Shown here one piece after another: positions 19,918-54,735 of a stretch of 64,000 bases of DNA; the stretch's first letter is position 1; each line of letters opens with the position of its first letter. The stretch spans positions 7,272 to 71,271 of the forward strand of contig CAZTCW010000032.1 in assembly GCA_964612825.1 (NCBI GenBank), written 5' to 3'. The notes under the pieces are model-generated. The model ran no database searches. It saw only the letters and a program-made list of their open reading frames with translations, and was not told the origin of the DNA. The position numbers and the translations under genes were made by a program. The DNA comes from an uncultured Dehalococcoidia bacterium (GTDB taxonomy: Bacteria > Chloroflexota > Dehalococcoidia > Lucifugimonadales > UBA1127).

Positions 19918-19993
19918 TGGTGGAGCTGAGGAGACTCGAACTCCTGACCCCCTGCATGCAAAGCAGGTGCTCTCCCAGCTGAGCTACAGCCCC
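19918..19993 (-). tRNA. tRNA-Ala (anticodon UGC), CCA encoded
   Basis: Reverse complement GGGGCUGUAGCUCAGCUGGGAGAGCACCUGCUUUGCAUGCAGGGGGUCAGGAGUUCGAGUCUCCUCAGCUCCACCA. Cloverleaf folds by eye, with the G3:U70 Ala identity pair and anticodon loop UU-UGC-AU. Confidence 0.95.
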
Positions 19994-24000: not shown

Positions 24001-24630
24001 CTAATTGGAATGAATCGGGTATTCTCCAAGAAAATTCCTCAAAATATCCTTGCCTGAAGGTGTGAGAATTGACTCAGGGTGAAATTGAACCCCTTCCACT
24101 GGATATTCCTTGTGACGGAGCCCCATGATTAACCCATTATCCGTCCATGCGCTTATCTCTAAACATTCCGGTAATGATTTATTAAACACCACTAAAGAAT
24201 GATATCTAATAGCCTGAAATGGACTCTGAATATTCCTTAAAACACCCTTTCCATCGTGAAAGATTTCGGAGGTTTTCCCATGAATAATTTCTCCAGCCCG
24301 ATCGACGATGCCACCGAAAGAGAATCCGATGCACTGATGACCTAGACACACACCTAAAACGGGAATCCTGGCCCCAAATTTTGCGACAACTTCATTCGAA
24401 ATGCCGGCTTCCTTAGGGGTGCATGGGCCTGGAGAAATAAGAATACGGGCAGGATTTAGGGCCTCTATCTCTTTTATAGTGATTTTGTCATTGCGCTCAA
24501 CCAGTACCTGTGCGCCTAGTTCGCTCAGATATTGGTAAAGGTTATAGGTGAAGCTATCATAATTATCGATAAGAAGAATCATCGTGCCATTCCCATACGA
24601 ATTTTGATTTTTGCTCGGTATGTAAACCAC
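24001..24630 (-). CDS. trpG: Anthranilate synthase component II (glutamine amidotransferase)
   Basis: IDNYDSFTYNL, the catalytic triad context GVCLGHQ, and HPES. The true start is probably the ATG at 24582 (MILLIDNYD). Confidence 0.9.
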   Translation of the reverse strand: MVYIPSKNQNSYGNGTMILLIDNYDSFTYNLYQYLSELGAQVLVERNDKITIKEIEALNPARILISPGPCTPKEAGISNEVVAKFGARIPVLGVCLGHQCIGFSFGGIVDRAGEIIHGKTSEIFHDGKGVLRNIQSPFQAIRYHSLVVFNKSLPECLEISAWTDNGLIMGLRHKEYPVEGVQFHPESILTPSGKDILRNFLGEYPIHSN

Positions 24631-24666
24631 GCATTTTTGGGTATTCTACTGGCCTAAACCTTCCCA

Positions 24667-26118
24667 TCACATTGCCTCCGCCTGCTCGATTGCCCTCATC
24701 AACGCTTGGGATTTATGCAACGTTTCCATATATTCAGATTCCGGGATGCTATCATAGACTACACCCCCACCAGATTGCACATAAGCGATTCCATCTTTAA
24801 TGACCATGGTCCTGATGGTAATGGCAGTGTCCATATTCCCCTGGAAACTAAAGTACCCGACAGCTCCTCCGTAGGGACCGCGACGCTGTCCTTCCAGTTC
24901 AGAAATAATCTCCATAGCTCGAATCTTTGGAGCGCCGGACAACGTCCCTGCGGGCAGGCATGAGCGCAAAGCGTCGTAAATAGATTTTGAAGGGTCGAGT
25001 TGTCCTTGAACTTCAGATTCCAAATGCATCACATGAGAATAATGAACGACCCGCATAAGATCATTCACTTTAACTGACCCCGGTTGGCTCACTCGCCCGA
25101 CATCATTTCGACCCAAATCTACCAACATGATATGCTCAGCCTGTTCTTTTTCATCAGATCGTAGACCTTCAGCGAGGATACGATCCTCTTCGGGTGTCTC
25201 GCCGCGGGGCCTGGTACCTGCTAGAGGAAAATTTAGTACCACTCCATCTTCAACCCGCACAAGCAATTCTGGTGATGCTCCCACAATATGAAATTCATCC
25301 AAATCTAGATAATACATGTATGGAGACGGGTTGATTGCCCGTAGTGAACGGTAGATGTTTAGAGGAGAAGCTGAGGTAGGTCGGGCAAATCTTTGAGAAG
25401 GTACCACCTGTATAATGTCGCCCGCGATAATATATTCTTTCGCCTTTTCGACCAACTTCAAATAATCTTCCTTAGAAAAATTTGAACTGACTTTAGGAGG
25501 CGTATTTTCAATTACAGGGGTTGGATTCGACCGATGCATTCTAGGAAGTGGCCGTTCAAGCCTCCGAATAATTGAATCAATTTTTTTTGTTGCCTTAATA
25601 TAGGATTTTTTGATGTCTTTCCCGATATAGGCATGACTTACAACCTGAATTTTATGCCGAACGTGGTCAAAAATAAGTAAAGTATCTGTCAGCATAAACA
25701 AAGATTCCGGAAGGGATAGAGGGTCGTTATCTGGTGGTTCGACCTTAGGTTCGGAATAACAGACCGTGTCATAGGCTAAATATCCAACCATTCCCCCATG
25801 AAACCGAGGCAGGCCTTTCACTGGAACCAATGTAAATCTTCCCAATTCCTTTTCAATTAGTGATAAAGGGTCGACATTCCCGTCTGGGAACCCGTTTCCG
25901 GTTTTAATAATTTTGGAGGGTTCCGTTCCAATAAAACTATAACGGGCTTGTCTTTCTCCACCTTCTACACTTTCTAAAAGAAAGGAATAAGGAGGCCGAG
26001 CAACCTTCAGGTAGGCGGTAACTGGAGTTTCAAGATCGGCATTTATTTCTTTGAAAATCGGGATGAGATTCCCATGATTTGTTAAATTTTCCATTTCCTC
26101 TAAAGGCGGGTAATACAT
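24667..26118 (-). CDS. trpE: Anthranilate synthase component I
   Basis: Chorismate-binding family motifs (LLESVEGGE, GAVGY, GGGVVYDS). Strong SD GGGAGGAG upstream. Confidence 0.95.
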   Translation of the reverse strand: MYYPPLEEMENLTNHGNLIPIFKEINADLETPVTAYLKVARPPYSFLLESVEGGERQARYSFIGTEPSKIIKTGNGFPDGNVDPLSLIEKELGRFTLVPVKGLPRFHGGMVGYLAYDTVCYSEPKVEPPDNDPLSLPESLFMLTDTLLIFDHVRHKIQVVSHAYIGKDIKKSYIKATKKIDSIIRRLERPLPRMHRSNPTPVIENTPPKVSSNFSKEDYLKLVEKAKEYIIAGDIIQVVPSQRFARPTSASPLNIYRSLRAINPSPYMYYLDLDEFHIVGASPELLVRVEDGVVLNFPLAGTRPRGETPEEDRILAEGLRSDEKEQAEHIMLVDLGRNDVGRVSQPGSVKVNDLMRVVHYSHVMHLESEVQGQLDPSKSIYDALRSCLPAGTLSGAPKIRAMEIISELEGQRRGPYGGAVGYFSFQGNMDTAITIRTMVIKDGIAYVQSGGGVVYDSIPESEYMETLHKSQALMRAIEQAEAM

Positions 26119-26138
26119 AAGAGAACTCCTCCCAGATT

Positions 26139-26400
26139 AAAACAAAAAGATCTCCCCCCCAAGGGGCGAGATCTCTCTCACGGTGCCACCCTTATTAACC
26201 CCTGAGACATATCAGGAGCACTTAACACAGCCCTCGCTGGATCCTAAATCCAACCAAACCTGCTAGCCTTTAACGGGGCCAAATCGGCAAGGCCTACGGC
26301 TTCCCTTTTCTCAGAGAAGTTCAACCTGCGGCTCCTGGGTCCATTCATTCCGGCGCTGGTGCCAAGGTTCCACCTTTCCCCGGCTCTCTTTTTCCCCGCT
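26139..26400 (-). promoter_or_regulatory. T-box riboswitch leader (Trp specifier UGG) with intrinsic terminator
   Basis: Minus strand shows stem I with AGAGAG, a specifier-loop candidate GAA-UGG-A (UGG at 26341..26343) and the conserved T-box AAGGGUGGCACCGUG. The terminator is AGAUCUCGCCCC-UUG-GGGGGGAGAUCU plus a U-run (26148..26177). The bulge UGGC is complementary to GCCA (G73, as in bacterial tRNA-Trp). Confidence 0.85.
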
Positions 26401-26566
26401 TTGGAATTACTCTTCCCATTCGCAGCCTTTTTCTTATTCCAGCAAGTATATGAGGTTGGGAAGATTTATGTCAATGGAAACGTCTGGTTTATTACATCCT
26501 CGGAGTTGGGAACGGTACACCATGATATACTGACATCCAACCGATCGATTTGGAGGCTGAATCCCA

Positions 26567-27244
26567 GTGTCCACGGTATTATTGTATTGCAATAATGATA
26601 AACAGTTCGCCGAGCTAACCCGTGTTTTCGAAGAGAAAGGCTTCCAGATCAAACGGGCACTCTCTTGTGAAGAACTAAATCGGTTCTCCGAGACAGAACA
26701 CCCAGCGCTATTATTCCTTGATTTTACCCTAACCCCCAACAGAGAAATCCAAAAGATTTCTTTAACCTGCCAGAATATCAACATTCCCAGCCTCGCGCTG
26801 TTCAGCACGGAAGTTTTGACAAATTACACTCAACTGATTGAAGCTGACGATTTTCTCGTAGCACCCCCTGATTCGACTGAACTAACGTTTCGAATACGTA
26901 ATCTGTTGTGGAATTCTAACGGTCACAGTAATCTTAACCACATCCAAATTGGCGGACTTGTGATAAATCAGGAAAAATACGAGGTTCTCCTTGATCATGA
27001 AAAAATCAGTCTCACTTTCAAAGAGTATGAACTTCTTCGACTAATGGCTTCTTCTCCAGGCAGAGTGTTTACAAGAGAGGGGCTATTATCACAAATCTGG
27101 GGGTACGATTACTTCGGGGGAACACGTACAGTCGATGTTCATATCCGTAGGCTTAGGAGCAAAATTGAAAATTCCCGACACTCATTTATCGAAACGGTAT
27201 GGAATGTTGGGTACCGATTCGTTGAAAATTCAGGAGCCCGCTGA
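26567..27244 (+). CDS. OmpR/PhoB-family response regulator with degenerate receiver domain (orphan; GlnR-like by context)
   Basis: The C-terminal winged helix is canonical (TRTVDVHIRRLRSKIE...VWNVGYRF). The receiver acidic pocket reads CNND instead of DD(D/E), the conserved Lys region reads FLVAPP instead of TKPF, and an Asp is retained in LLFLDF. GTG start with GGAGG 10 nt upstream. No adjacent histidine kinase. Confidence 0.8.
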   Translation: MSTVLLYCNNDKQFAELTRVFEEKGFQIKRALSCEELNRFSETEHPALLFLDFTLTPNREIQKISLTCQNINIPSLALFSTEVLTNYTQLIEADDFLVAPPDSTELTFRIRNLLWNSNGHSNLNHIQIGGLVINQEKYEVLLDHEKISLTFKEYELLRLMASSPGRVFTREGLLSQIWGYDYFGGTRTVDVHIRRLRSKIENSRHSFIETVWNVGYRFVENSGAR

Positions 27245-27298
27245 ACTTACTCCGGTGCTTTCTCCAACCTCACGATGCCCCATCAATATAAGGATGAC

Positions 27299-27336
27299 GT
27301 AACACTAATGTTACAATGATGTAACATTAAGGAAAC
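27299..27336 (+). promoter_or_regulatory. Four-pentamer operator GTAAC-n6-GTTAC-n6-GTAAC-n6-GAAAC (GlnR-box-like) upstream of amt
   Basis: Exact 11-nt periodicity read from the sequence. It lies 93-130 nt upstream of the amt ATG and matches the actinobacterial GlnR a-b-a-b box pattern gTnAc-n6-GaAAc-n6-GtnAC-n6-GAAAC (from memory). Confidence 0.5.
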
Positions 27337-27428
27337 ATTTATCTACTATCCTGTCAGAAAAGAGGTTCTTATTTGGGGAATTCTATTTAAGAATCTCGCA
27401 GCCAACATATTTAGCTTGGAGGGATAAA

Positions 27429-28634
27429 ATGGATTCTGGAAATACCGCATGGATGCTTACAGCATCTGCTTTGGTTCTTCTGATGACTCCGGGTCTGGCT
27501 TTCTTTTACGGTGGGTTGGTCCGGGCAAGAAACGTTGTCAGTACAATTATGTACAGCTTCATGGCAATGGCTGTTGTGAGCGTTGTCTGGGTTCTATGGG
27601 GTTACAGCCTAGCATTTGGTGAAGGCAATCCCTATATCGGGGACCTTTCGTTATTAGGACTTTCTGGTATTGATGTCCACACCCAGGGAGATACCTTACT
27701 TTTCGTCGTGTTCCAAATGATGTTCGCCATCATTACTCCCGCATTAATCACAGGCGCGTTTGTGGAACGATTCAAATTCACCACGTATATGTTGTTCCTT
27801 GTTATTTGGATTACCGTAGTGTATGCCCCGGTCGCTCATTGGGTTTGGGCAGGGAACGGCTGGCTCTTCACGATGGGTGCCGCTGACTTTGCTGGCGGGA
27901 CGGTAGTACATATCAATGCTGGTGTCGCAGCTCTTGCAGCCGCCTTGTTAGTTGGAAAAAGAAAGAATCCAGCCCCTGAACCACATAACGTACCATACGT
28001 TGTGTTAGGGGCCGCCATTCTATGGTTCGGCTGGTTTGGGTTCAACGCAGGTTCGGGCCTAGCGGCTAATGAATTAGCAGTTAACGCCTTTCTGGTCACT
28101 AACACTGCGGCAGCCACAGCCGCCCTTACATGGGGAATTATTTCCCAAATACAGACAGGAAAGATTAGTGCTGTTGGAGTAGCATCTGGCGCCGTAGCCG
28201 GTTTGGTAGCGATTACTCCAGCTTCCGGGTTTGTTGGAGTTATGGGTGCTGTTGCAATTGGCTTTGGAGCTGGACTCTTCTGCTACCTCGCCGTCTTGCT
28301 AAGAGCGAAAACCAATGTTGATGACGCCCTAGAAGTGGTCGCAGTACATGGCGTTGGTGGACTTTGGGGTGCGATCGCTACAGGGATATTCGCTGCTTCA
28401 GCAGTTGGTGGCGTTTCAGGATTAATCGAAGGAAACGCTGGGCAGGTGGTCACCCAAATCGTGGCCTGTCTCGCTACAATCGTCTATTCCTTTACAGCGA
28501 CAATGATTATCCTCAAAGTTCTAGATGTGATCCCTGGTCTCGGGCTTCGCGTGACCGAAAACAATGAAGACCAAGGACTCGATCTTAGTTCACATGGAGA
28601 AAGAGCCTTTGTAAGTGATGGGGCAGATTCATAA
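27429..28634 (+). CDS. amt: Ammonium transporter (Amt family)
   Basis: Amt signatures (PGLAFFYGGLVR, DFAGGTVVHINAG, HGVGGLWG). SD GGAGGG upstream. Confidence 0.95.
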   Translation: MDSGNTAWMLTASALVLLMTPGLAFFYGGLVRARNVVSTIMYSFMAMAVVSVVWVLWGYSLAFGEGNPYIGDLSLLGLSGIDVHTQGDTLLFVVFQMMFAIITPALITGAFVERFKFTTYMLFLVIWITVVYAPVAHWVWAGNGWLFTMGAADFAGGTVVHINAGVAALAAALLVGKRKNPAPEPHNVPYVVLGAAILWFGWFGFNAGSGLAANELAVNAFLVTNTAAATAALTWGIISQIQTGKISAVGVASGAVAGLVAITPASGFVGVMGAVAIGFGAGLFCYLAVLLRAKTNVDDALEVVAVHGVGGLWGAIATGIFAASAVGGVSGLIEGNAGQVVTQIVACLATIVYSFTATMIILKVLDVIPGLGLRVTENNEDQGLDLSSHGERAFVSDGADS

Positions 28635-28693: not shown

Positions 28694-29047
28694 ATGATTT
28701 GTATCGAAGCGGTAATACGGCCGGAACGAATAGGGCAAGTGACTTCAGCCCTTGAAGAACTCGGATGCCCAGGATTTTACTACTACAATGTGACCGGACA
28801 GGGAAGACAAAGAGGAGTTGAAGTGTTTGTCGGTAGAGCCGGACAAACTGCAAGTAGATCGGCGGTACAGAAAACTTGCATCCGAACCGTGGTTGATGAA
28901 CAAATGAAAGAGTCAGTCATCGACGCAATCATCGAAGCCTCGCGCAGTCCGGGAGAGGGTGCTATTGGAGACGGAAAAATCTTTGTTACCCCGATTGAAG
29001 ATTTGGTAAGAGTTCGCACCGGGGAACGAGGCGACTCCGCACTTTAA
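28694..29047 (+). CDS. glnK: PII nitrogen regulatory protein with atypical T-loop
   Basis: PII core (IEAVIRPE..., GDGKIFVTPIEDLVRVRTGE). The T-loop reads GRQRGVEVFVGRAGQTASRSAVQK and has no Tyr at the position equivalent to Tyr51. Located immediately downstream of amt. Confidence 0.88.
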   Translation: MICIEAVIRPERIGQVTSALEELGCPGFYYYNVTGQGRQRGVEVFVGRAGQTASRSAVQKTCIRTVVDEQMKESVIDAIIEASRSPGEGAIGDGKIFVTPIEDLVRVRTGERGDSAL

Positions 29048-29249: not shown

Positions 29250-30251
29250 TTATTTGGTCGCTGCCCCACAAACGGTGTTAATAATCAAACGGGTGGCCAC
29301 ATAGGGATCAACGTTAGCATTCGGTCGTCGATCTTCTATATAGCCTTTCTGATCTCTTGCAACCTGCCACGGTATCCGAACAGACGCTCCTCTATTCGAA
29401 ACACCATAAGAAAATTCTTTGTAGCTAGCAGTTTCATGTTGTCCTGTTAATCGATTTTCTATACCCGCTCCATAACCTGCTATATGCTCAGGAGCATTGG
29501 TGCTAAGGGCCTCAGCAGCTGCAACGCATGCGGCATAATCTTCCCGCATTTGTTTAGTGGAAAAGTTGGTATGTGCCCCTGCTCCGTTCCAGTCTCCAGG
29601 AACCGGCTTCGCCGCTAGAGAAACCGTCACATCATAATTCTCTGCTATTCTCATCAGAAGCCAACGAGCTATCCACAATTCGTCTGCGACCAATGGGCTC
29701 CCGATAGGCCCTATTTGGAATTCCCATTGGCCCGGCATAACTTCCGCGTTAATCCCAGCGATATGCAAACCCGCCATAATACAGGCGTCCATATGCTCTT
29801 CAACAATGTCTCTACCGAAGATCACATCGGATCCTACGCCACAATAATAATCTCCTTGAGGGGCCGGAAATCCATTTTCCGGCCATCCCAACGGAGCATT
29901 GCCTTGGAAAAAGGTGTATTCTTGTTCTATTCCAAACCAGGTATCGAAATCGCTAAATTTATCGGCAGCAGCCTCGCAGGCAGCCCTTGTGTTTGACGGG
30001 TGGGGTGTCATGTCAGTAAGCAATGTTTCTGCCATAACGATTACATTGTTCCCCCCACGTATCGGGTCTGGAACCGTTAACACTGGCCTCAATACTACGT
30101 CAGAATTGTCCCCAGTGGCCTGCTGAGTACTAGACCCATCATATCCCCAGATTGGAGGAGCGCTCCCATCCGCTATTATCTTGGTCTTGGATCTGAGTCT
30201 TACTGACGGAGTGCTACCGTCTAACCACAAATATTCCGCTTTATAAACCAA
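29250..30251 (-). CDS. glnII: Glutamine synthetase type II (eukaryote-like GSII)
   Basis: 333 aa. The N-terminus YKAEYLWLDGSTPSVRLRSKTKI and PIWGYDGSST are typical of GSII rather than GSI. TTG start with GGAGG 6 nt upstream. Confidence 0.85.
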   Translation of the reverse strand: MVYKAEYLWLDGSTPSVRLRSKTKIIADGSAPPIWGYDGSSTQQATGDNSDVVLRPVLTVPDPIRGGNNVIVMAETLLTDMTPHPSNTRAACEAAADKFSDFDTWFGIEQEYTFFQGNAPLGWPENGFPAPQGDYYCGVGSDVIFGRDIVEEHMDACIMAGLHIAGINAEVMPGQWEFQIGPIGSPLVADELWIARWLLMRIAENYDVTVSLAAKPVPGDWNGAGAHTNFSTKQMREDYAACVAAAEALSTNAPEHIAGYGAGIENRLTGQHETASYKEFSYGVSNRGASVRIPWQVARDQKGYIEDRRPNANVDPYVATRLIINTVCGAATK

Positions 30252-30494
30252 AAGTCACCTCCGATTATTTATCGACACCACAACCTTAAATTTTGTCAGG
30301 CATCGGTTTAATTATCGATAGAACGAACCTTCCAAATATTCTTCGACCGAAACTCCCCCTGAAAGGATCCTTCTCACATGATAATCTGTTCAAAACGGGC
30401 TCTGAAGCCCCAGTTTGACAGGTTGATTCAAGTAAGTATACCGCTGATAATTTGGAGTTTGCAAAGTTCAAACTACCATTTCTCACTATTTGTC

Positions 30495-40256: not shown

Positions 40257-40480
40257 AAAACAAAAAAACCCGCCCTAGATAGGGACGGGTTGAAAGATTA
40301 GCTTACCCGCGGTACCACCCTCATTGCTCCGTAGAAGGAACCACTCAAAGTTATAACGGTTCTACCGTAGAGCGCTACTGATTTGTTTCCATCACGCTCT
40401 CCGCTCAAGGGCGAGTTCACAGTCCTTGCCTACCAGCTTCGCACCTGCCGCCGGCTCTCTGAAGGCTGGGGTCTGTTACT
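40257..40480 (-). promoter_or_regulatory. T-box riboswitch leader (candidate Leu specifier CUC) with intrinsic terminator
   Basis: Minus strand shows AGAGAG in stem I, a candidate specifier GAA-CUC-G (CUC at 40413..40415) and the T-box UGAGGGUGGUACCGCG (exact core). The terminator is ACCCGUCCC-UAUCUA-GGGCGGGU plus U7 (40262..40291). The bulge UGGU is complementary to ACCA (A73, as in tRNA-Leu). Confidence 0.85.
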
Positions 40481-40560
40481 ACTCCCTATCCCAGCGTTTT
40501 TCGTAATTCGCAACCAAAATGATAGCATGTAAATTGAATCCATGTCAATAAATCGTTCAT

Positions 40561-45888: not shown

Positions 45889-45900
45889 TTATACTCTTCA

Positions 45901-45995
45901 CTCATTTCCCTCCGCTGGTATTACCCAGATCAGGTAAAGGGTCGGTGGATTGGATCTCTCCACCCTCTCAGCCCAAATTACTTGAGCTCCCCTAA
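45901..45995 (-). promoter_or_regulatory. TPP (THI-box) riboswitch aptamer
   Basis: Minus strand GGGGAGC...GGGCUGAGAGGGUGGAGAGAUCCAAUCCACCGACCCUUUACCUGAUCUGGGUAAUACCAGCGGAGGGAA. It contains the CUGAGA, ACCCUUU-ACCUGAUCUGG-UAAUACCAGCG-AGGGA consensus blocks in the correct order. Confidence 0.92.
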
Positions 45996-46023
45996 TTGAA
46001 ATCCTATTTGCTTATGTGAGGTC

Positions 46024-46336: not shown

Positions 46337-46879
46337 GTGACCATTTCCTCTGAGAAGACAATTCTTACCTCAGAAGACATTCGCCGTTCCCTCCTAAGGA
46401 TTGCTCATGAGATTCTGGAGGCAGCCGGTGAAAACCTTATCCTAATAGGGATCAAGACTCGAGGCGTACCATTGGCATATAGAATCGCGGACAATATCCG
46501 AGACATTTCCGGGAAGAATATAACTGTAAAATCGTTAGATATCTCCGCCTACAGAGACGACGCTTCTACCAGGCGAATAACTGAGGAAGGAAAGAGAAAT
46601 CAAGAGATGTCCGTCCAAGGTCGGACCGTGGTTCTTGTGGACGATGTACTGTACACAGGACGTTCCATCCGGGCTGCTATGGATGCCGTCATGGATCAAG
46701 GCAGGCCTAATAAAATTCAAATTGCCGTTCTAATTGACCGTGGCCACAGGGAACTCCCGATTAGAGCAGATTATGTAGGAAAAAATTTGCCTACCTCCCT
46801 TTCAGAAACAGTTAAAGTCCAATTGTCGGAAACCGACATGGTCGACCGGGTGAGGATGCAAAGTATTTACACTTCATAG
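46337..46879 (+). CDS. pyrR: Bifunctional pyrimidine operon regulator/uracil phosphoribosyltransferase
   Basis: PyrR sequence ([12 protein letters not shown], the PRPP motif [17 protein letters not shown]). GTG start overlaps the stop of a 14-codon upstream ORF (GTGA). Confidence 0.9.
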
Positions 46880-46929
46880 GAAGAATGAAGCACCGCACGC
46901 TTTTTAATGTCCACTACAAATAATTTAGG

Positions 46930-48210
46930 GTGAACGAAAAGAAAATGAGTCTGAATGGCAAAAGTATCATCTCAATCGACGACCTCTCCAACGTGGAAAT
47001 AGAAGAGATCTTTCAGGTTGCTTCAGAATTTGATGAACAAATTACCGGGAACGTGATTGACCCAATTCTAAAAGGACAAAAACTATTTACGCTCTTCTAT
47101 GAAGCCAGTTCTAGAACCTACTTTAGCTTTCGAGAGGCGATGAGAAAGCTGGGTGGAGATTGGGATGGGGTTCTAGGAGCTGAATCAGTCACTTCCGTTG
47201 CTAAAGGTGAAAGCATCGCAGACACCATCAGAACCATCGAGCTTGTCAGTGATGTAATTGTTATCCGGCACCCTTTAGATGGATCTGCCCGAGTAGCACA
47301 GGAATATTCCTCAAAGCCGATAATAAATGGGGGAGATGGAGCTAGAGAACACCCAACTCAGACCCTAGTCGACCTTTACACAATCCTGAAAGAAAAGGGA
47401 CATATTAAAGGGCAGGTGATCGGCCTTTGCGGCGATTTACTGCATTCCCGCACAATCCACTCCCTTGCTTATGCCCTTGCTCGCCTGGGGGCAAAAATAC
47501 GTACTATTGCGTTACCGAGTTTAGGCTTCCCGCAACATGTCCGGGGTAAACTCCAATCGATGAAGGCTGACCTTCAGGAATATTCCGCTCCAACCGAAGT
47601 TTTTAAAGACAGCGGCTCACTACTTCTTCAATCAGGAAATCCTAATCCTCCAAACAATTCAAATCGGATTGAGGTCCAAACCCGCTACGAAACTACCAAT
47701 GATTTTTTCCGGGGGTTGTCAGCTCTCTATATGACGCGTTTGCAAACAGAGCGGTTCGATGACCAACTAGAATCCTCCCAACTTGAGTTAGAAACTATTA
47801 CTTCAAAACTGCTCTCGATAGCACCCCAAGAAACAATCATCATGCATCCCTTGCCCAGGAGACAGGAAATTGCTTACGAAGTAGACGACGATCATCGAGC
47901 AGCATACTTTCGACAAATGAAAAATTCCATACCTGTCCGAATGGCTATCCTTTCCCTAATTTTGGGAGTAAAAGAATCCAAATCATCAAATGATTCGGCC
48001 GAAATTCGAATTCGAGTAGATCCTATCAACACCGACCGTTGCAGCAATCCTAGATGCGTGCTCAACCACGAAACCTATCTCAATCCGAAAGCATTTCACC
48101 GACAGAATCAACCTGAAGAAATCCGCTGCCTATATTGCGACCAAAAAATGAACTTTAAAGGCCCACAGCTTGATCATTCTTTGTCTTCCCCGAAAGACAA
48201 AGCACTATGA
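46930..48210 (+). CDS. pyrB: Aspartate carbamoyltransferase catalytic chain fused to a PyrI-type Zn-binding domain
   Basis: ATCase motifs (ASSRTYFSF = S-T-R-T-like, HPTQ, HPLPR). The C-terminal ~80 aa carry CSNPRC-x23-CLYC, the C-x4-C-x23-C-x2-C spacing of the PyrI zinc domain. Start either GTG 46930 or ATG 46945. Confidence 0.88.
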   Translation: MNEKKMSLNGKSIISIDDLSNVEIEEIFQVASEFDEQITGNVIDPILKGQKLFTLFYEASSRTYFSFREAMRKLGGDWDGVLGAESVTSVAKGESIADTIRTIELVSDVIVIRHPLDGSARVAQEYSSKPIINGGDGAREHPTQTLVDLYTILKEKGHIKGQVIGLCGDLLHSRTIHSLAYALARLGAKIRTIALPSLGFPQHVRGKLQSMKADLQEYSAPTEVFKDSGSLLLQSGNPNPPNNSNRIEVQTRYETTNDFFRGLSALYMTRLQTERFDDQLESSQLELETITSKLLSIAPQETIIMHPLPRRQEIAYEVDDDHRAAYFRQMKNSIPVRMAILSLILGVKESKSSNDSAEIRIRVDPINTDRCSNPRCVLNHETYLNPKAFHRQNQPEEIRCLYCDQKMNFKGPQLDHSLSSPKDKAL

Positions 48211-48223
48211 AAAAGGAGAGTAA

Positions 48224-49585
48224 TTGAACGGCGAAGACAACTACCTTCTAGTTAAGAACGGTCACATAATTGATCCTGCAAATAAGTTCGATCATCCCGG
48301 AGATATCTTAATCCATAAAAACAAAATCATCTGGATTGCTCCGATAAATCATAGAAATGCGATCCCGAAACGAATTTCAGTTTTTGACGCTCAGGGATTC
48401 ATTGTGTGCCCTGGATTCATCGACCTTCACTGCCATTTAAGAGACCCCGGATTTGAAGAAAAAGAAACTCTACAAAGCGGATCTCTGGCAGCTGCCAGAG
48501 GTGGATTTACTACTATTTGCGCTATGCCTAATACCTACCCCCCGTTAGACACTCCCGAATTGATTGAATATGTCCTCCGCAAAAGCACGGAATTGAACCT
48601 TATCAGGGTGCTCCCGATTGGATGCGTAACAAAGCAACGCTCTGGCAAAGAACTAGTCGACATGGATGCCCTGGCAGAAGCCGGGGTGATCGGATTTAGT
48701 GATGACGGCGACCCGGTATCAGACCCTGAATTAATGCGAAATGCATTAGAAAATTCAAAAGAATTGGAACTGCCAATTATTCAACATTGTCAAGATATAC
48801 CGTTATCCCAAGGCGCCGTTCTCCATAAAGGCTGGGTAGCAGAGCGATTAGGCTTAATCGGAATGCCCTCAGAAGCTGAAGAGAAAATGGCTGCTAGGGA
48901 TATCCACTTAGCCTCTCAAACCGGGGGAGTTTTACATTTAGCGCACATAAGTACCGAAGGAACTCTCCGACTTACAAAAGAAGCGAAATCATTGGGTATC
49001 AAGGTGACCGCTGAGGTGACACCTCATCACTTATCCCTAACAGAAGAATGGGCACTAACGAAAATCGAGAATTCACTTTATGACACTCGAGCTAAGGTGA
49101 ACCCACCACTTAGAACCCCGAAAGATGTCTCTGCTCTTATTGCAGGGCTTAGAGAGGGAACTATAGATGCTATAGCCACAGACCACGCACCCCATCGGGC
49201 CGAAGATAAAAATTGCACCATGGAAGAGGCTGCATTTGGAATCAGCGGATTAGAAACTACCCTTGGGTTATTGATGCGAATCGTTAAGAGGGGCGAATTG
49301 GATCTCCCCACCCTTATCGAACGCCTCACCACTGGGCCAGCGAAGGTACTACCCGAATCATGGAAAAAGCTAGGAAGCCTAGCGCAAGGAAATGTGGCTG
49401 ATATTGCCATCATCGATCCGAATTATGAATGGGTCGTCCGTCCAGAAGATATGTTAACTAAAGGAAAAAATACCCCATTAGTCGGATCTACGTTGGTAGG
49501 AAAAGTTCAAGCTACCATCAGTAATGGAAATATTGTTTATCAGGATAATGCTTCATACAACCGTTTGGCGCTAGAGGAGAACTGA
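48224..49585 (+). CDS. pyrC: Dihydroorotase
   Basis: Amidohydrolase motifs (DLHCHLRDPG, TDHAPH). TTG start preceded by AAGGAGAG. Confidence 0.9.
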   Translation: MNGEDNYLLVKNGHIIDPANKFDHPGDILIHKNKIIWIAPINHRNAIPKRISVFDAQGFIVCPGFIDLHCHLRDPGFEEKETLQSGSLAAARGGFTTICAMPNTYPPLDTPELIEYVLRKSTELNLIRVLPIGCVTKQRSGKELVDMDALAEAGVIGFSDDGDPVSDPELMRNALENSKELELPIIQHCQDIPLSQGAVLHKGWVAERLGLIGMPSEAEEKMAARDIHLASQTGGVLHLAHISTEGTLRLTKEAKSLGIKVTAEVTPHHLSLTEEWALTKIENSLYDTRAKVNPPLRTPKDVSALIAGLREGTIDAIATDHAPHRAEDKNCTMEEAAFGISGLETTLGLLMRIVKRGELDLPTLIERLTTGPAKVLPESWKKLGSLAQGNVADIAIIDPNYEWVVRPEDMLTKGKNTPLVGSTLVGKVQATISNGNIVYQDNASYNRLALEEN

Positions 49586-49587
49586 AG

Positions 49588-50703
49588 ATGAGCGAATATG
49601 GTGCCCTTGTCCTAAAAGACGGCTCCGTTTTCTGGGGAACCCCATTTGGTGCGAACACATCGACTTACGGGGAGGTGGTCTTTACGACGAGCATGACAGG
49701 CTATCAGGAAATGCTTACAGACCCATCGTTTGCAGGACAAATTGTTATCCCAACTTATCCATTGATTGGCAATTATGGGATAAACGTAGACAGTGGGGAA
49801 TCTAAACAAATTCAGGTGTCCGGTTTTGTTGTCAGGAGTTGGTGTGACTTACCTAGCCACGGATTAAGCACCATGAATCTGGGTGAATACCTAAGCAATG
49901 AGTCAATTCCAGGATTAAGCCAGGTGGACACCAGAGCGATAACACGGAAACTCCGGACACACGGGGTAATGCCAGGAGCACTGGCTATCAATATTTCGCC
50001 AGATACTGCTCTCCAAAAATTACGGGATCAATCACCCTATGAAAACACGGATTTTGTTGAGACGATAAGTACAAAATCTCTTTACCAGTGGCTCCAAAAA
50101 AACCGGGCCGGACCAAACGAGGAAAGTTCCCGAGAACTTCGGGGCCGGATTGCTGTTACGGATTACGGGGTTAAATACAATATCCTGAGAATTTTACAAA
50201 GAATGGGGTTCGAAGTGGTAGTAATCCCAGCTTCGATGTCAGCTGAGGAAATTTTAGGCTTGAATCCGAATGGGTTGGTTTTGTCACCAGGACCCGGAGA
50301 CCCTATGAAGTTAGGGTATTTGGTTGAAACCGTCCAAGGATTAATCGGAAAGGTCCCAATCCTAGGAATCTGCCTAGGACACCAGATGATCGCTCAAGCG
50401 TTTGGTGGGAAAACGTTCAAATTAAAATTCGGTCATCGGGGAGCAAACCATCCAGTCAAGGATATTAAATCCGGTCGAGTTTATATCACTGCCCAAAATC
50501 ATGGGTATTCCGTAGACCCAGATTCCTTGCCTAATGGGTTAATTGTGAGCCAGACGAACATAAATGATGGAACGGTTGAGGGCCTTAGCCACACATCGTT
50601 ACCCATTATCACCATCCAATACCATTCTGAAGCTGCGCCGGGACCCAGAGACAATGAATATATTTTCTCCCAATTTATTGAGATGGTGGAATCTGCTGGT
50701 TAA
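49588..50703 (+). CDS. carA: Carbamoyl-phosphate synthase small subunit
   Basis: CPSase small-chain N-domain plus a GATase domain (GICLGHQ, HPE-like QYHSEA). Confidence 0.95.
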   Translation: MSEYGALVLKDGSVFWGTPFGANTSTYGEVVFTTSMTGYQEMLTDPSFAGQIVIPTYPLIGNYGINVDSGESKQIQVSGFVVRSWCDLPSHGLSTMNLGEYLSNESIPGLSQVDTRAITRKLRTHGVMPGALAINISPDTALQKLRDQSPYENTDFVETISTKSLYQWLQKNRAGPNEESSRELRGRIAVTDYGVKYNILRILQRMGFEVVVIPASMSAEEILGLNPNGLVLSPGPGDPMKLGYLVETVQGLIGKVPILGICLGHQMIAQAFGGKTFKLKFGHRGANHPVKDIKSGRVYITAQNHGYSVDPDSLPNGLIVSQTNINDGTVEGLSHTSLPIITIQYHSEAAPGPRDNEYIFSQFIEMVESAG

Positions 50704-50717
50704 CCGGAGATGAAAAC

Positions 50718-51368
50718 GTGATTAAACTATTTTTTGACATCGAAACCATACCAGAGAGCGAATCATTACGATCAGAAATTGAAACAACCATTACCCCTCC
50801 AAAGAATTTTGTAAACCCAGAAAGGATTCACAAATGGACGATTGAAGAGAGACCCGGGGAAATTGAGACCCGTTTCCGCAAAACCTCTCTTAGAGCTCAC
50901 ACCGGAAAAATCCTCTGTATCGGATACATTAAAGAGGGGGGGCCTGAAAAGTATGAGGGTGTCCTCACTGGATCCGAAAGGGAAATCCTTGAAGAATTTT
51001 GGGAATTAACAAAGGATGTCGAACAATTTATTGGTTTTAATGTGATCGAATTCGATCTCAAATACGTATGGCAACGTTCCGTGATATTAAATATACCCCC
51101 AACCAAAGATTTATTAAGCAACAACAACCCAACACATTCGGTATTCGATGTTATGCAAGAATGGGATATGTGGAGTGCAAGAGATCACATTTCTTTAGAT
51201 ACATTATCCAAGACGCTAGGTGTAACATCCCCAAAATCGGGAGGGTTAAATGGCGCGCTAGTCTACGACTATTTTATCGCCGGTCGTTGTCAAGAAATTT
51301 TCGACTATTGCCTACGAGATGTGGTCGCAACTAGGGAAATTTATTTAAGGATGACGTTTCAATCATAA
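50718..51368 (+). CDS. DEDD-type 3'-5' exonuclease (RNase H-like; PolB-exonuclease-related)
   Basis: Exo I FFDIET, Exo II GFNVIEFDL and Exo III YCLRDVVAT motifs. 216 aa. GTG start with GGAGA upstream. Confidence 0.72.
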   Translation: MIKLFFDIETIPESESLRSEIETTITPPKNFVNPERIHKWTIEERPGEIETRFRKTSLRAHTGKILCIGYIKEGGPEKYEGVLTGSEREILEEFWELTKDVEQFIGFNVIEFDLKYVWQRSVILNIPPTKDLLSNNNPTHSVFDVMQEWDMWSARDHISLDTLSKTLGVTSPKSGGLNGALVYDYFIAGRCQEIFDYCLRDVVATREIYLRMTFQS

Positions 51369-51408
51369 ATTAATGGTCGATACTACAAAACAAATCCCGG
51401 AGGTTTTA

Positions 51409-54400
51409 ATGGGAAAAACGATAGGTAAAGTTCTTGTAATTGGGAGTGGGCCAATAATCATCGGACAAGCCGCCGAATTTGATTATGCTGGAACTCAAGC
51501 GTGCAAAGCACTCAGAGAAGAAGGGATTTCGACCATTTTAGTTAATTCGAACCCAGCGACTATTATGACCGACGACGAGATAGCAGACGCCGTATATATC
51601 GAACCGTTAACTGCCGAGGTACTAGAACGGATTATTGCCAAGGAACAGCCAGACGGAGTCCTTCCCACTCTAGGGGGGCAGACTGGGTTAAATTTGGCCG
51701 TTGAACTGAATGAAAAGGGAATTTTAGAAAAGTATAACGTTGAATTACTGGGCACTCCCCTTTCCGCGATAAAACAAGCGGAAGACCGGGAACTATTCCG
51801 TCAGCTTTTGCACCAAATAAATGAACCTGAACCGCCAAATGCGACAGTATCAGAATTATCTGAAGCGGACGACTTGGCAAAAGAAATTGGATTCCCCTTG
51901 GTAGTTAGGCCTGCATATACCTTAGGAGGAACCGGAGGCGGGGTCGTTCGGAAACCCAGCGAACTCCTCCCCTCAGTGGAAAGTGGGTTGGCAGCGAGTC
52001 CCATCCATCAGGTTCTGCTAGAAAGATACCTTGAAGGATGGAAAGAGATTGAAGTGGAGGTTATTCGAGATAGCTCTGATACCTGCATAATGATTTGTAA
52101 TATGGAGAATTTCGATTCCATGGGGGTTCATACCGGAGATAGTATCGTCGTAGCCCCATCTCAGACGTTATCAGACAAAGAATACCAAGTGCTACGAAGC
52201 GCAAGTCTTAAAATAATCCGAGCTTTAGGAATAGAGGGAGGGTGTAACGTCCAATTTGCCTTGGCCCCTCACCCTACAATCTCAGAGACACTACCTGAAA
52301 CACTCAAACCAGAAAGCAATCTTCAATACTATGTTATCGAGGTTAATCCACGTGTAAGCCGATCTTCAGCTTTGGCTTCAAAGGCAACAGGATATCCGAT
52401 AGCACGGGTTGCAGCAAAAATTGCCATCGGGAAACGTCTAGACGAAATTCCAAATGCAGTAACCCAAGAAACCATGGCGTCTTTTGAACCCGCCCTAGAT
52501 TATTGCGTGGTAAAAATCCCACGTTGGCCTTTCGATAAGTTTCCAACAGGGGATAGAACCACTGGAACGCAAATGAAAGCCACCGGAGAAGTAATGGCTA
52601 TCGACCGCACGTACGAAGCTGCCTTTCAAAAAGCCGTACGCTCCCTAGAGGTCGGAGGTGTTTCACTGTTATGGGAAAACCCCGATTGGATTAAATCGGA
52701 AGAGAACATTACCGCTTCACTTTTTCCTCCGACAGATTCACGAATTTGGGGAATTATGTCAGCCTTACGGAATGGAAGCACCATAGAAAATATAAGCAAA
52801 GTTTCGCTTGTCGACCCATGGTTCATCAATGCTATGGACCGAATTGTCAAAATGGAAAAAGAACTAATTTCGGCAAAAGAAATCACCCCAACTTTATTAT
52901 GGAATGCCAAACGATTGGGATTTTCCGACAACTACCTATCTTCACTCGGATTAGGGGATGGGATTCCTGAAAATGTACGACAGCTCCGAAAAAATCTTGG
53001 GATCCGGCCCGTATACAAAATGGTGGACACCTGCGCAGCAGAATTTGAAGCAGCAACCCCATATTATTACAGTACTTATGAACAAGAAAATGAAGCCTAT
53101 CCTCTTTCAGGCCCGAAAGCCATGGTGTTAGGAAGCGGGCCCATTCGCATTGGGCAAGGAATCGAATTTGACTACTGCTCTGTCCACGCCGCGTGGGCAT
53201 TACAGAAAGAAAACATTAAAAGCGTGCTGATCAATTCTAATCCAGAAACGGTTTCCACTGATTTTGACACTACTGATAGATTGTACTTTGAACCTTTGGA
53301 TGAGGAATCTGTAAGAGATATTATAGAAAATGAAACCACCTATGATAATGAAAGTCTGAACCCGTCTATCCCCTCCACAGTCGTACAATTTGGTGGACAG
53401 ACGGCCATTAACCTCTCCCAGATCCTTGAAGAGGCTGCATTACCTATCCTCGGATCTTCCGCTCAAGCAATAGATATTGCTTCAGATAGAGGAAGATTTG
53501 AAAAGTTAATGAGCTCTCTCGGAATTCCCCAACCTCCCGGAACCACGGTTACCAACGTGCCTGATGCCTTGGAAGTTGCACAACGAATTGGATATCCCGT
53601 CTTAGTACGACCTAGCTATGTGCTAGGAGGAAGGGCAATGGAAATCGTCCAAGAACCGTCGGAATTAGCTGAATACATCAACCGAGGGCTCCAGGCAAGT
53701 CCTGGTCACCCAATACTTGTCGACAAATATCTTGAAGGGAAAGAATGCGAAGTCGATGCCATTTGTGACGGAGAAACGGTTCTCATTCCTGGAGTAATGG
53801 AGCATGTCGAGAGAGCAGGAGTTCATAGCGGTGATTCCCTTGCTATTTACCCAGGATTAAATCTTACGACTGATGAAGTAGAAACATTAGTTGCTCATAC
53901 CACCAAAATCGCAATAGGCCTCGGAATTAAAGGATTACTTAATGTCCAATTTGTAATTATGGGCGGATCCACTTACCGAAGCCCTGAAACTTCAAATCAA
54001 TCCACGTCTTCCGTGGTGTACGTACTAGAGGTAAACCCTCGGGCAAGCAGAACCGTCCCATTTTTGTCCAAAGTAACTAACGTACCAATGGTTCGTTTAG
54101 CCACCCAAGTTATGTTAGGAAAAACATTGAGCGAGCTTGGGTACACCAATGGGCTGTATCCGCGTCAACATGTTGTCGCCATCAAGGCTCCCGTTTTTTC
54201 AATGTCGAAATTAACTGGAGTAGATTCTTATTTGGGTCCTGAGATGAAATCAACAGGGGAAGTAATGGGGATTGACCACAATTATCAATCAGCTTTATCT
54301 AAAGCATTAATTAGCGCCGGAATGGTTCTCCCCAAATCAGGAAAAGTACTCCTAAGCATCGCCAGTCGAGATAAAGAGAAGGCGATCCCTCTAATTAAAC

Positions 54401-54735
54401 GGCTAAATGAATTGGAATATTCACTAATTGCCACTGAAGGAACAGCCGAGTTTATCCAAAATTCAGGGATTAGCAATTGCGAAGTCGTTTCAAAACTAGG
54501 ACAAGGGAATCCAAACGTAGTGGATCTTCTTCAATCCCGATCTGTGGGAGCTGTAATTAACACTATGACTAACAGTGCTGGGATCATGAAAGATGGGTTC
54601 CAAATCCGAAGAGCAGCTGTTGAGCAACGGATTCCGTGTTTCACATCTATAGATACCGCTCGAGCAGCCTTAGAGGCGGTTCAAAATGTAGATATTGATT
54701 ACAAAATTCTGAGGAGATCCGAATACCTTATTTGA
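51409..54735 (+). CDS. carB: Carbamoyl-phosphate synthase large subunit
   Basis: Duplicated ATP-grasp halves (VLVIGSGPIIIGQAAEFDYAGTQA / MVLGSGPIRIGQGIEFDYC) and an MGS-like C-terminal domain. ATG at 51409 is preceded by GGAGG; the ORF-track start is 51373. Confidence 0.95.
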   Translation: MGKTIGKVLVIGSGPIIIGQAAEFDYAGTQACKALREEGISTILVNSNPATIMTDDEIADAVYIEPLTAEVLERIIAKEQPDGVLPTLGGQTGLNLAVELNEKGILEKYNVELLGTPLSAIKQAEDRELFRQLLHQINEPEPPNATVSELSEADDLAKEIGFPLVVRPAYTLGGTGGGVVRKPSELLPSVESGLAASPIHQVLLERYLEGWKEIEVEVIRDSSDTCIMICNMENFDSMGVHTGDSIVVAPSQTLSDKEYQVLRSASLKIIRALGIEGGCNVQFALAPHPTISETLPETLKPESNLQYYVIEVNPRVSRSSALASKATGYPIARVAAKIAIGKRLDEIPNAVTQETMASFEPALDYCVVKIPRWPFDKFPTGDRTTGTQMKATGEVMAIDRTYEAAFQKAVRSLEVGGVSLLWENPDWIKSEENITASLFPPTDSRIWGIMSALRNGSTIENISKVSLVDPWFINAMDRIVKMEKELISAKEITPTLLWNAKRLGFSDNYLSSLGLGDGIPENVRQLRKNLGIRPVYKMVDTCAAEFEAATPYYYSTYEQENEAYPLSGPKAMVLGSGPIRIGQGIEFDYCSVHAAWALQKENIKSVLINSNPETVSTDFDTTDRLYFEPLDEESVRDIIENETTYDNESLNPSIPSTVVQFGGQTAINLSQILEEAALPILGSSAQAIDIASDRGRFEKLMSSLGIPQPPGTTVTNVPDALEVAQRIGYPVLVRPSYVLGGRAMEIVQEPSELAEYINRGLQASPGHPILVDKYLEGKECEVDAICDGETVLIPGVMEHVERAGVHSGDSLAIYPGLNLTTDEVETLVAHTTKIAIGLGIKGLLNVQFVIMGGSTYRSPETSNQSTSSVVYVLEVNPRASRTVPFLSKVTNVPMVRLATQVMLGKTLSELGYTNGLYPRQHVVAIKAPVFSMSKLTGVDSYLGPEMKSTGEVMGIDHNYQSALSKALISAGMVLPKSGKVLLSIASRDKEKAIPLIKRLNELEYSLIATEGTAEFIQNSGISNCEVVSKLGQGNPNVVDLLQSRSVGAVINTMTNSAGIMKDGFQIRRAAVEQRIPCFTSIDTARAALEAVQNVDIDYKILRRSEYLI

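Follow-up and report, generated by a model that had tools for sequence, protein, structure and literature searches.

A GlnR-like orphan regulator and a putative four-unit operator upstream of the amt–P-II operon in an uncultured Dehalococcoidia bacterium

The literature regards GlnR as the nitrogen master regulator of actinobacteria. Its boxes consist of an a-site (gTnAc) and a b-site (GaAAc) separated by 6-nt spacers in the order a1-b1-a2-b2, as in the amtB promoters of S. coelicolor and M. tuberculosis, and the DNA co-crystallised with the protein, ACGTAACATCGCGGTAACA, corresponds to GTAACA-n5-GTAACA (PMC10235972). The activation complex of M. tuberculosis GlnR, solved by cryo-EM, contains amtB promoter DNA spanning -64 to +13, whose -35 is non-optimal and which has a -10 element, and in the complex with RNA polymerase four GlnR protomers are arranged head-to-tail (PMC10235972). 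[quoted passage not shown]

Pho boxes are built along similar lines. They are hexamer direct repeats with an 11-nt period, usually four units just upstream of the core promoter, and they are bound head-to-tail by an OmpR/PhoB-family protein; in both respects they resemble the array and the mode of binding that we propose below. In B. subtilis, the PhoP boxes are TT(A/T/C)ACA repeats. Streptomyces PhoP boxes are composed of 11-nt direct repeat units (PMC2275107), and Streptomyces PhoP is reported to bind the glnR, glnA, glnII and amtB promoters (PMC2691820). Other regulators share the target genes (amt-glnK, glnA) of the system considered here, namely NtcA (GTA-n8-TAC), Bacillus TnrA and GlnR (MerR family, TGTNA-n7-TNACA), NtrC/sigma-54 and AmtR, but they differ in belonging to other protein families and in acting through palindromes or sigma-54 promoters.

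A full-text literature search returned no description of an OmpR-type GlnR in Chloroflexi, Chloroflexota or Dehalococcoidia; a preliminary description of the present locus had held that a GlnR-type regulon is not well described outside actinobacteria. The RegPrecise 3.0 paper includes a Chloroflexi collection and leaves GlnR unmentioned, although the database itself may hold such a regulog.

The array upstream of amt and its surroundings

We analysed a stretch of 64,000 nucleotides, referred to as the window. The leader region of its amt gene contains four direct repeat units on the plus strand: GTAACA (27299..27304), GTTACA (27310..27315), GTAACA (27321..27326) and GAAACA (27332..27337). Read directly, positions 27299-27337 are GTAACActaatGTTACAatgatGTAACAttaagGAAACA. 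The units had been described as four phased pentamers, with coordinates and an 11-nt period that are exact; because an A follows all four pentamers, however, the repeat unit is a hexamer, G(T/A)(A/T)ACA, followed by five variable bases. Also correct was the placement of the motif 93-130 nt before the amt start and 55 nt after the regulator gene: 93 nt lie between the array end and the amt ATG (27429), and 55 nt between the regulator stop (27244) and the array start.

Measured against the GlnR-box consensus (gTnAc/GaAAc, 6-nt spacing, four sites), the array matches exactly, with zero mismatches. The preliminary description had taken it for a GlnR box, and this holds for the pentamers and their 6-nt spacing. 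It does not hold for a strict a-b-a-b alternation, since the order varies among lineages, being a-a-a-b in the window, a-a-b-b at a related locus before glnA-glnA-gltB (L206) and a-a-b-a at another before P-II-glnA (L084). In this the present arrays differ from those of actinobacteria, where GTAACA-type and GAAACA-type sites alternate as a1-b1-a2-b2.

The pattern GTNAC-n6-GNNAC-n6-GTNAC-n6-GAAAC occurs once in the 64-kb window, even when up to two mismatches are allowed, compared to an expectation of 0.03 from shuffles. A position-weight scan of the window found no further arrays of three or two units; in 20 shuffled windows, the same scan gave 0-1 three-unit and 0-2 two-unit arrays. Tandem Repeats Finder reported no tandem repeat at the array, which indicates that the hexamers alone repeat and the spacers do not, and hence that the array is not a simple tandem duplication. 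Patterns for other ALTERNATIVES (NtcA, TnrA/MerR-family GlnR and sigma-54) are absent from 27245-27428. By these measures, and by the comparisons between lineages given below, the array is a conserved element, neither a chance run nor a tandem repeat.

Downstream of the array, a Shine-Dalgarno sequence (GGAGGG, 27418..27423, plus strand, read directly) precedes the first gene of the operon, which encodes a 401-aa ammonium transporter, Amt (27429..28634, plus strand; Pfam Ammonium_transp 422 bits, NCBIfam TIGR00836 459 bits). The second gene encodes a P-II signal protein of the GlnK/GlnB type with 117 aa (28694..29047, plus strand; Pfam P-II 77.5 bits), and the gene order amt-P-II is also found in L007 and L008, two related contigs considered below. 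Convergent to the operon is a gene for a GlnII-type (eukaryote-like) glutamine synthetase (29250-30251, minus strand; NCBIfam GlnII 592 bits). The region upstream of glnII (30252-30494, minus strand) contains no GTAACA array. A weak inverted repeat, GTTTG-n7-CAAAC (30457-30473), is located there, directly after the leuB stop.

On the opposite strand, upstream of the regulator gene, lies a trpEGD operon (24001-26432, minus strand) with a T-box leader at 26159-26432. Juxtaposition of the regulator gene with a divergent trpE(GDC...) operon is seen in the window, in L084, in L207-209 and in L216-217, and the genes downstream of such trpE-neighbouring regulators vary (amt, P-II-glnA, or lactate permease plus nuo). 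A second T-box leader (40278-40501), a TPP riboswitch (45890-46003) and a tRNA gene (19921-19993) are all on the minus strand. The preliminary description had also attributed T-box and PyrR regulation to the window; the two T-box leaders are confirmed, while no PyrR binding site was detected in the window at the Rfam gathering threshold, despite the presence of a pyr/car cluster at about 46337-54735. The GC content of the window is about 45%, its CarB is 67% identical to proteins of Dehalococcoidia metagenome-assembled genomes (MAGs), which are its only relatives with a name, and the best genome matches of the regulator are likewise Dehalococcoidia MAGs. The earlier view that the DNA comes from a non-actinobacterial lineage is thus borne out by the relatives of both proteins.

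The adjacent regulator and its relationship to GlnR

The gene preceding the array (26567..27244, plus strand) encodes a GlnR-like orphan regulator of the OmpR/PhoB family, 225 aa in length, with a degenerate receiver-like N-terminal domain and a winged-helix DNA-binding domain. Trans_reg_C is its sole passing Pfam domain (95 bits). Neither Response_reg nor GlnR_1st (PF21695) matches the protein of the window, even at E<=10, and three homologues (P0067, P0085 and P0012) score 22-26 bits against GlnR_1st, whose cut-off is 27. The N-terminal domain is therefore more diverged here than in actinobacterial GlnR.

Among PDB sequences, the regulator scores highest against GlnR, with 109 and 106 bits for the S. 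erythraea protein and 105 bits for that of M. tuberculosis; VicR comes next, with 83 bits. The S. erythraea entries are 8HIG and 8HML, and the M. tuberculosis entry is chain O of 8HIH. Both 8HIH and 8HML are GlnR entries (PMC10235972), and 8HIG is S. erythraea GlnR according to the fold-search listing. When a profile of 38 family members was compared to the PDB, full-length GlnR scored 170/159 bits and the GlnR DNA-binding domain 147 bits, against 137 for RegX3, 129 for MtrA and 117 for the VicR domain. No GlnR model exists in NCBIfam against which the regulator could be compared.

An AlphaFold model of the regulator (pLDDT 86.6) consists of a (beta-alpha)5 receiver-like domain and a winged helix-turn-helix domain, the latter superposing on its counterpart in S. 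erythraea GlnR with a TM of 0.91 (1.3 A). We considered a fold search as a means of recognising GlnR and discarded it, since other OmpR/PhoB proteins match likewise: the search returned generic matches to this family, with M. tuberculosis GlnR ranked second. Given these generic matches, and a DNA-binding domain that is 51% identical to GlnR and 50% identical to YycF/WalR, structure does not discriminate GlnR from its relatives.

The bases of the DNA are contacted in the GlnR-DNA crystal by R186, V190, R193 and R194 (S. erythraea numbering; PMC10235972). All four residues are identical here (R187, V191, R194 and R195) and invariant in the 38-member alignment; the recognition helix is identical to that of actinobacterial GlnR, and the family alignment includes a 20-residue invariant segment to which the GlnR counterpart was aligned. 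Because PhoB-type regulators share the base-contacting residues, these too do not discriminate GlnR.

In the receiver-like domain, the phospho-acceptor position still holds Asp52, where beta3 ends. Beta1 is followed by CNN instead of an acidic pair, and the conserved Lys after beta5 is replaced (DDFLVAPP), as it is in S. erythraea GlnR, where the aligned segment reads DDILLPT. An Asp kept within an incomplete phosphorylation pocket is the mark of the atypical receiver of the GlnR type. With neither the conserved Lys nor an acidic pair to bind metal, the regulator is unlikely to undergo classical phosphorylation. The claim that an OmpR-family regulator with a degenerate receiver precedes amt has thus been upheld, both by Trans_reg_C alone passing in Pfam and by the loss of these residues. 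Next to the regulator gene, neither the window nor any of 15 related loci with Pfam-annotated neighbours has a histidine kinase gene, which makes the regulator an orphan at the level of the locus; a kinase may be encoded elsewhere in the genome.

From these comparisons we conclude that the regulator is probably an orphan, atypical OmpR/PhoB protein whose nearest characterised relatives are GlnR proteins, and orthology to GlnR is likely. It has in common with actinobacterial GlnR its orphan status, the atypical receiver with Asp and the recognition helix, and GlnR is its closest solved relative by score. The targets shared with the actinobacterial system are amt, glnA and GOGAT. What sets the present system apart is its host, a member of the Dehalococcoidia (Chloroflexota, about 45% GC) rather than of the Actinomycetota. 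A further difference is that the regulator gene lies directly upstream of its target, meaning that gene and operator travel together.

Conservation of the array, nitrogen genes and promoter geometry

The order regulator, array and amt(-P-II) recurs in close relatives, with regulators that are 90% (L081), 75% (L082) and 70% (L083) identical to that of the window. In these three loci the hexamers are kept and the spacers are changed, as exemplified by L081 (GTAACActaacGTTACAttaatGTAACAttataGAAACA). In the MAG contigs L006, L007 and L008 (Dehalococcoidia/Dehalococcoidales), the regulator and the array are followed by amt(-P-II-glnA), the regulators being 50-54% identical in tblastn segments from L006 and L008 and 42% identical in L007. 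Conservation of the motif in orthologous amt leaders, which the preliminary description had named as a check on its proposal, is thus seen in all six of these loci. The array also stands before P-II-glnA in L084, which has the trpEGDC neighbourhood in common with the window, before glnA-glnA-gltB(-gltD) in L206 and L211-213, and before a small ORF (orf78) and then glnA in L205. The suggestion of a GlnR-type regulon is therefore supported across relatives, by arrays at glnB-glnA and glnA-glnA-gltBD; within the window itself it does not extend beyond amt-P-II, the sole target there.

Counting independent lineages, a four-unit array is present in 8/8 that have amt, P-II or glnA/gltBD downstream of the regulator, and in the fetched flanks of 0/10 lineages of the regulator family with no downstream nitrogen gene (L001-L005, L207-209, L216-217, L210, L214 and L215). 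By our own calculation, the Fisher P value for this association is ~2e-5. The sole nitrogen-linked locus without the operator is L009 (4001-8450), from the Dehalococcoidia MAG LRMED-138 (34% GC). Only 48 nt separate the regulator gene from glnA-gltB there, and the 8.4-kb locus has no detectable array; the regulator and glnA-gltB may be co-transcribed.

The regulators of array-bearing lineages are only 45-51% identical. Among 28 units from seven independent lineages, the consensus bases of GTAACA are found 23 (G), 19 (T), 26 (A), 28 (A), 26 (C) and 26 (A) times, and the six hexamer positions carry 0.85-2.0 bits of information, compared with 0.07-0.47 bits for the five of the spacer. These values cover the seven lineages other than L211, whose units conform. 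On this evidence, conserved hexamers separated by random spacers constitute a classic phylogenetic footprint.

Many family members that lack an array stand beside non-nitrogen genes, so their targets may lie elsewhere, or they may have another role. In L207-209 and L216-217, the regulator is followed by lactate permease and a nuo operon, in some cases within 25-75 nt; in L210, it is found beside ilvE and BCKDH.

The distribution of the regulator family suggests that it reaches beyond the classical actinomycetes, as does its tie to nitrogen genes, and that both extend across phyla. Relatives of the regulator occur directly after glnA, with glnII alongside, in contigs of Acidimicrobiia and other Actinomycetota (L014, L016, L017, L020, L025, L027, L028, L041 and L048). 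When the Acidimicrobiia loci were scanned for the array geometry, a four-site array was found in L017 only, upstream of glnII (TTCAC-n6-GTCAC-n6-GCAAC-n6-GAAAC), a sample too weak for a comparison of register. In L010, an Armatimonadota MAG, the gene order is gltB-glnA-regulator.

Promoter geometry provides a further point of comparison. In 8/8 lineages, an nAnnnT hexamer follows the 44-nt array at an offset of exactly 4 nt, and in 5/8 it conforms to TAnnnT. In the window, this hexamer is TATCCT (27347..27352, plus strand), which we predict to be the -10 element on account of its conserved offset from the array; its counterparts are TATAGT, TAAAAT, TAATAT, TAGACT, CAGTCT, CACCCT and CATCCT. 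A search for a -35 element 16-18 nt upstream of the -10-like hexamer gave at most two matches out of six to TTGACA in 7/8 lineages, and no TTGACA-like hexamer was found at this distance from the predicted -10 in the window. Transcription would then start at about 27359, which would place the four units at about -60 to -55, -49 to -44, -38 to -33 and -27 to -22. If the conserved nAnnnT is indeed the -10 element, the third unit would lie over a non-optimal -35 region and the last between -35 and -10, a geometry like that of actinobacterial GlnR. Considering that unit, spacing, site number and probable position are all alike (GTAACA/GAAACA units, an 11-nt period and four sites in both systems), the Dehalococcoidia arrays match the GlnR element.

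Two other promoter assignments were rejected. Judged on the window alone, TACTAT (27344-27349) makes the better -10, but it was not chosen as the primary candidate, since other lineages do not keep its offset. A sigma-70 promoter scan gave one match, on the minus strand, in which a GTAACA unit is reused as the -35; we regard this as an artefact of the repeat because there is no gene downstream on that strand.

Directly after the probable start site, the predicted amt 5' leader contains a hairpin (27362..27397, plus strand), with a folding energy for the leader of -17.6 kcal/mol (z -1.7). Hairpins of different sequence are located at the corresponding place in L081 (~1564-1601), L082 (979-1027) and L083 (~2167-2214), that of L082 having a 17-bp perfect stem (-35.5 kcal/mol), and 5/13 consensus pairs show double changes. 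In the window no U-run directly follows the stem, and the amt leader gave no Rfam match at E<=1. The hairpin may act as a stem-loop that stabilises the 5' end, or it may add another layer of regulation.

Proposed mechanism, alternative explanations and implications

We consider it likely that the four hexamers are the operator of amt-P-II and that they are bound by the adjacent orphan GlnR-like regulator, which would activate the operon. According to this model, four copies of the regulator would bind the hexamers head-to-tail, one per helical turn. The third would cover the place of the absent -35 element, and the fourth would sit between that place and the -10. Together they would bring RNA polymerase to a promoter whose -10 (TATCCT) is weak and which lacks a usable -35, and transcription of amt and P-II would thereby be switched on, presumably when nitrogen is limiting. 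We infer binding by the 26567-27244 product, a start of transcription near 27359, a response to nitrogen and, from the likeness to the M. tuberculosis complex, activation rather than repression.

Occlusion of the core promoter by the same regulator, resulting in repression of amt-P-II, would be another way to use the array, in that RNA polymerase needs the interval from -35 to -10, over which units 3 and 4 extend. Actinobacterial GlnR, for its part, is described both as an activator and as a repressor. Repressed promoters, however, normally have good -35 and -10 elements, whereas 7/8 lineages here are without a -35 and the -10 is weak. Repression fits poorly with a missing -35, and the M. tuberculosis amtB complex, which has identical geometry, is an activation complex (PMC10235972). 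We consider repression unlikely.

A second alternative gives the array to a different protein. A scan of metagenomes with the pattern KTWACA-n5-KTWACA-n5-KTWAYA-n5-nnAACA matched at least 120 stretches in at least 80 loci, and most of the matches listed are true 11-bp tandem repeats with identical spacers. The non-tandem matches among those listed include arrays of (G/T)TAACA x4 with an 11-nt period upstream of phosphate genes, recovered because the pattern allows T at position 1. They precede pstB in L088 and L139 (TIGR00972, 398 and 414 bits), pstS in L100, L119 and L133, where the match is above cut-off, as well as in L149 and L160, where it falls below (the pstS ORF of L160 being interrupted by the contig end), and a PHO4 phosphate transporter gene in L114. 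Several pst arrays include GTAACA units, such as that of L119 before pstS (GTAACAgagatTTAACAcaattGTAACAtaattGTAACA), and in L139 a PhoB-like regulator gene lies directly upstream of the array and pstB. As a test for enrichment at nitrogen genes, the scan was set aside: it is no census, and the matches listed are tandem repeats or Pho boxes. Two metagenome contigs, L098 and L136, have arrays of 4-6 GTAACA units upstream of Bacteroidota-type TonB-dependent receptor genes (identified by Pfam in L098 only, and in L136 by a similar N-terminus); these are possibly regulated by phosphate starvation.

The grammar of the array is thus common to boxes read by PhoB/PhoP-type proteins, and the motif alone cannot assign it to GlnR. 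The array might accordingly be a Pho-type box for a canonical PhoB or PhoP encoded elsewhere, with the adjacent regulator unrelated or merely competing; the B. subtilis PhoP boxes, the reported presence of Streptomyces PhoP at nitrogen promoters and the arrays before pstB, pstS and PHO4 would all be compatible with this. Against it, the array follows a GlnR-like orphan and precedes nitrogen genes in 8/8 lineages, and never pst genes; position 1 is mostly G rather than T (23/28 units); and the window has no Pho gene, no pst genes and no second OmpR-type regulator. Pho boxes precede pstS, pstB or pit and go with a canonical phosphorylatable regulator, while amt, P-II, glnA and gltBD are the genes found here, together with an orphan regulator whose receiver is degenerate; at the window locus, neither phosphate genes downstream nor such a canonical regulator is present. 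A Pho-type box is, in our judgement, very improbable. A last alternative is a chance succession of similar pentamers, or a functionless 11-bp tandem repeat in decay, for which the prevalence of true tandem repeats among the metagenome matches listed would speak. The expectation of 0.03 per window, the negative Tandem Repeats Finder result and, above all, hexamers that are conserved between unrelated spacers across regulators only 45-51% identical weigh so heavily the other way that we regard this reading as refuted by the pattern of conservation and give it next to no credence.

Our preference for an activating GlnR-type operator rests on the relationships of the regulator and on the exclusive association of the array with nitrogen genes, rather than on the motif alone. 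In this sense, the GlnR-type interpretation put forward in the preliminary description has gained support: the closest solved relatives of the regulator by sequence score are GlnR proteins, the repeat unit is that of the GlnR consensus DNA, and the array is found at nitrogen genes of relatives. The departures from the actinobacterial definition are the phylum, which is not Actinomycetota, the lack of a Pfam GlnR_1st match and the lack of strict a-b alternation. As judged from sequence comparison, the element appears to work like a GlnR box with a GlnR-type regulator and, by most testable criteria, is one.

It is conceivable, though in our view rather doubtful, that GlnR and its operator represent an older Terrabacteria system common to Chloroflexota (Dehalococcoidia), Actinomycetota and Armatimonadota, with an operator grammar shared with Pho boxes, and that GTAACA/TTAACA arrays in Dehalococcoidia are read by both the orphan nitrogen regulator and a PhoB-type phosphate regulator. 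If true, this would amount to a hard-wired node of nitrogen-phosphorus cross-talk in a lineage with very few transcription factors. That an identical array grammar marks Pho regulons elsewhere calls for caution in motif-based annotation. The position-weight model offers a means of predicting Dehalococcoidia nitrogen regulons in MAGs. The regulator, the operator and the probable promoter geometry of a system ascribed to actinobacteria recur in uncultured Dehalococcoidia, and the four-protomer activation architecture of M. tuberculosis may predate the actinobacteria by far. For the Dehalococcoidia, which are not yet genetically tractable, these findings offer a concrete handle on the regulation of ammonium uptake and of GS-GOGAT.
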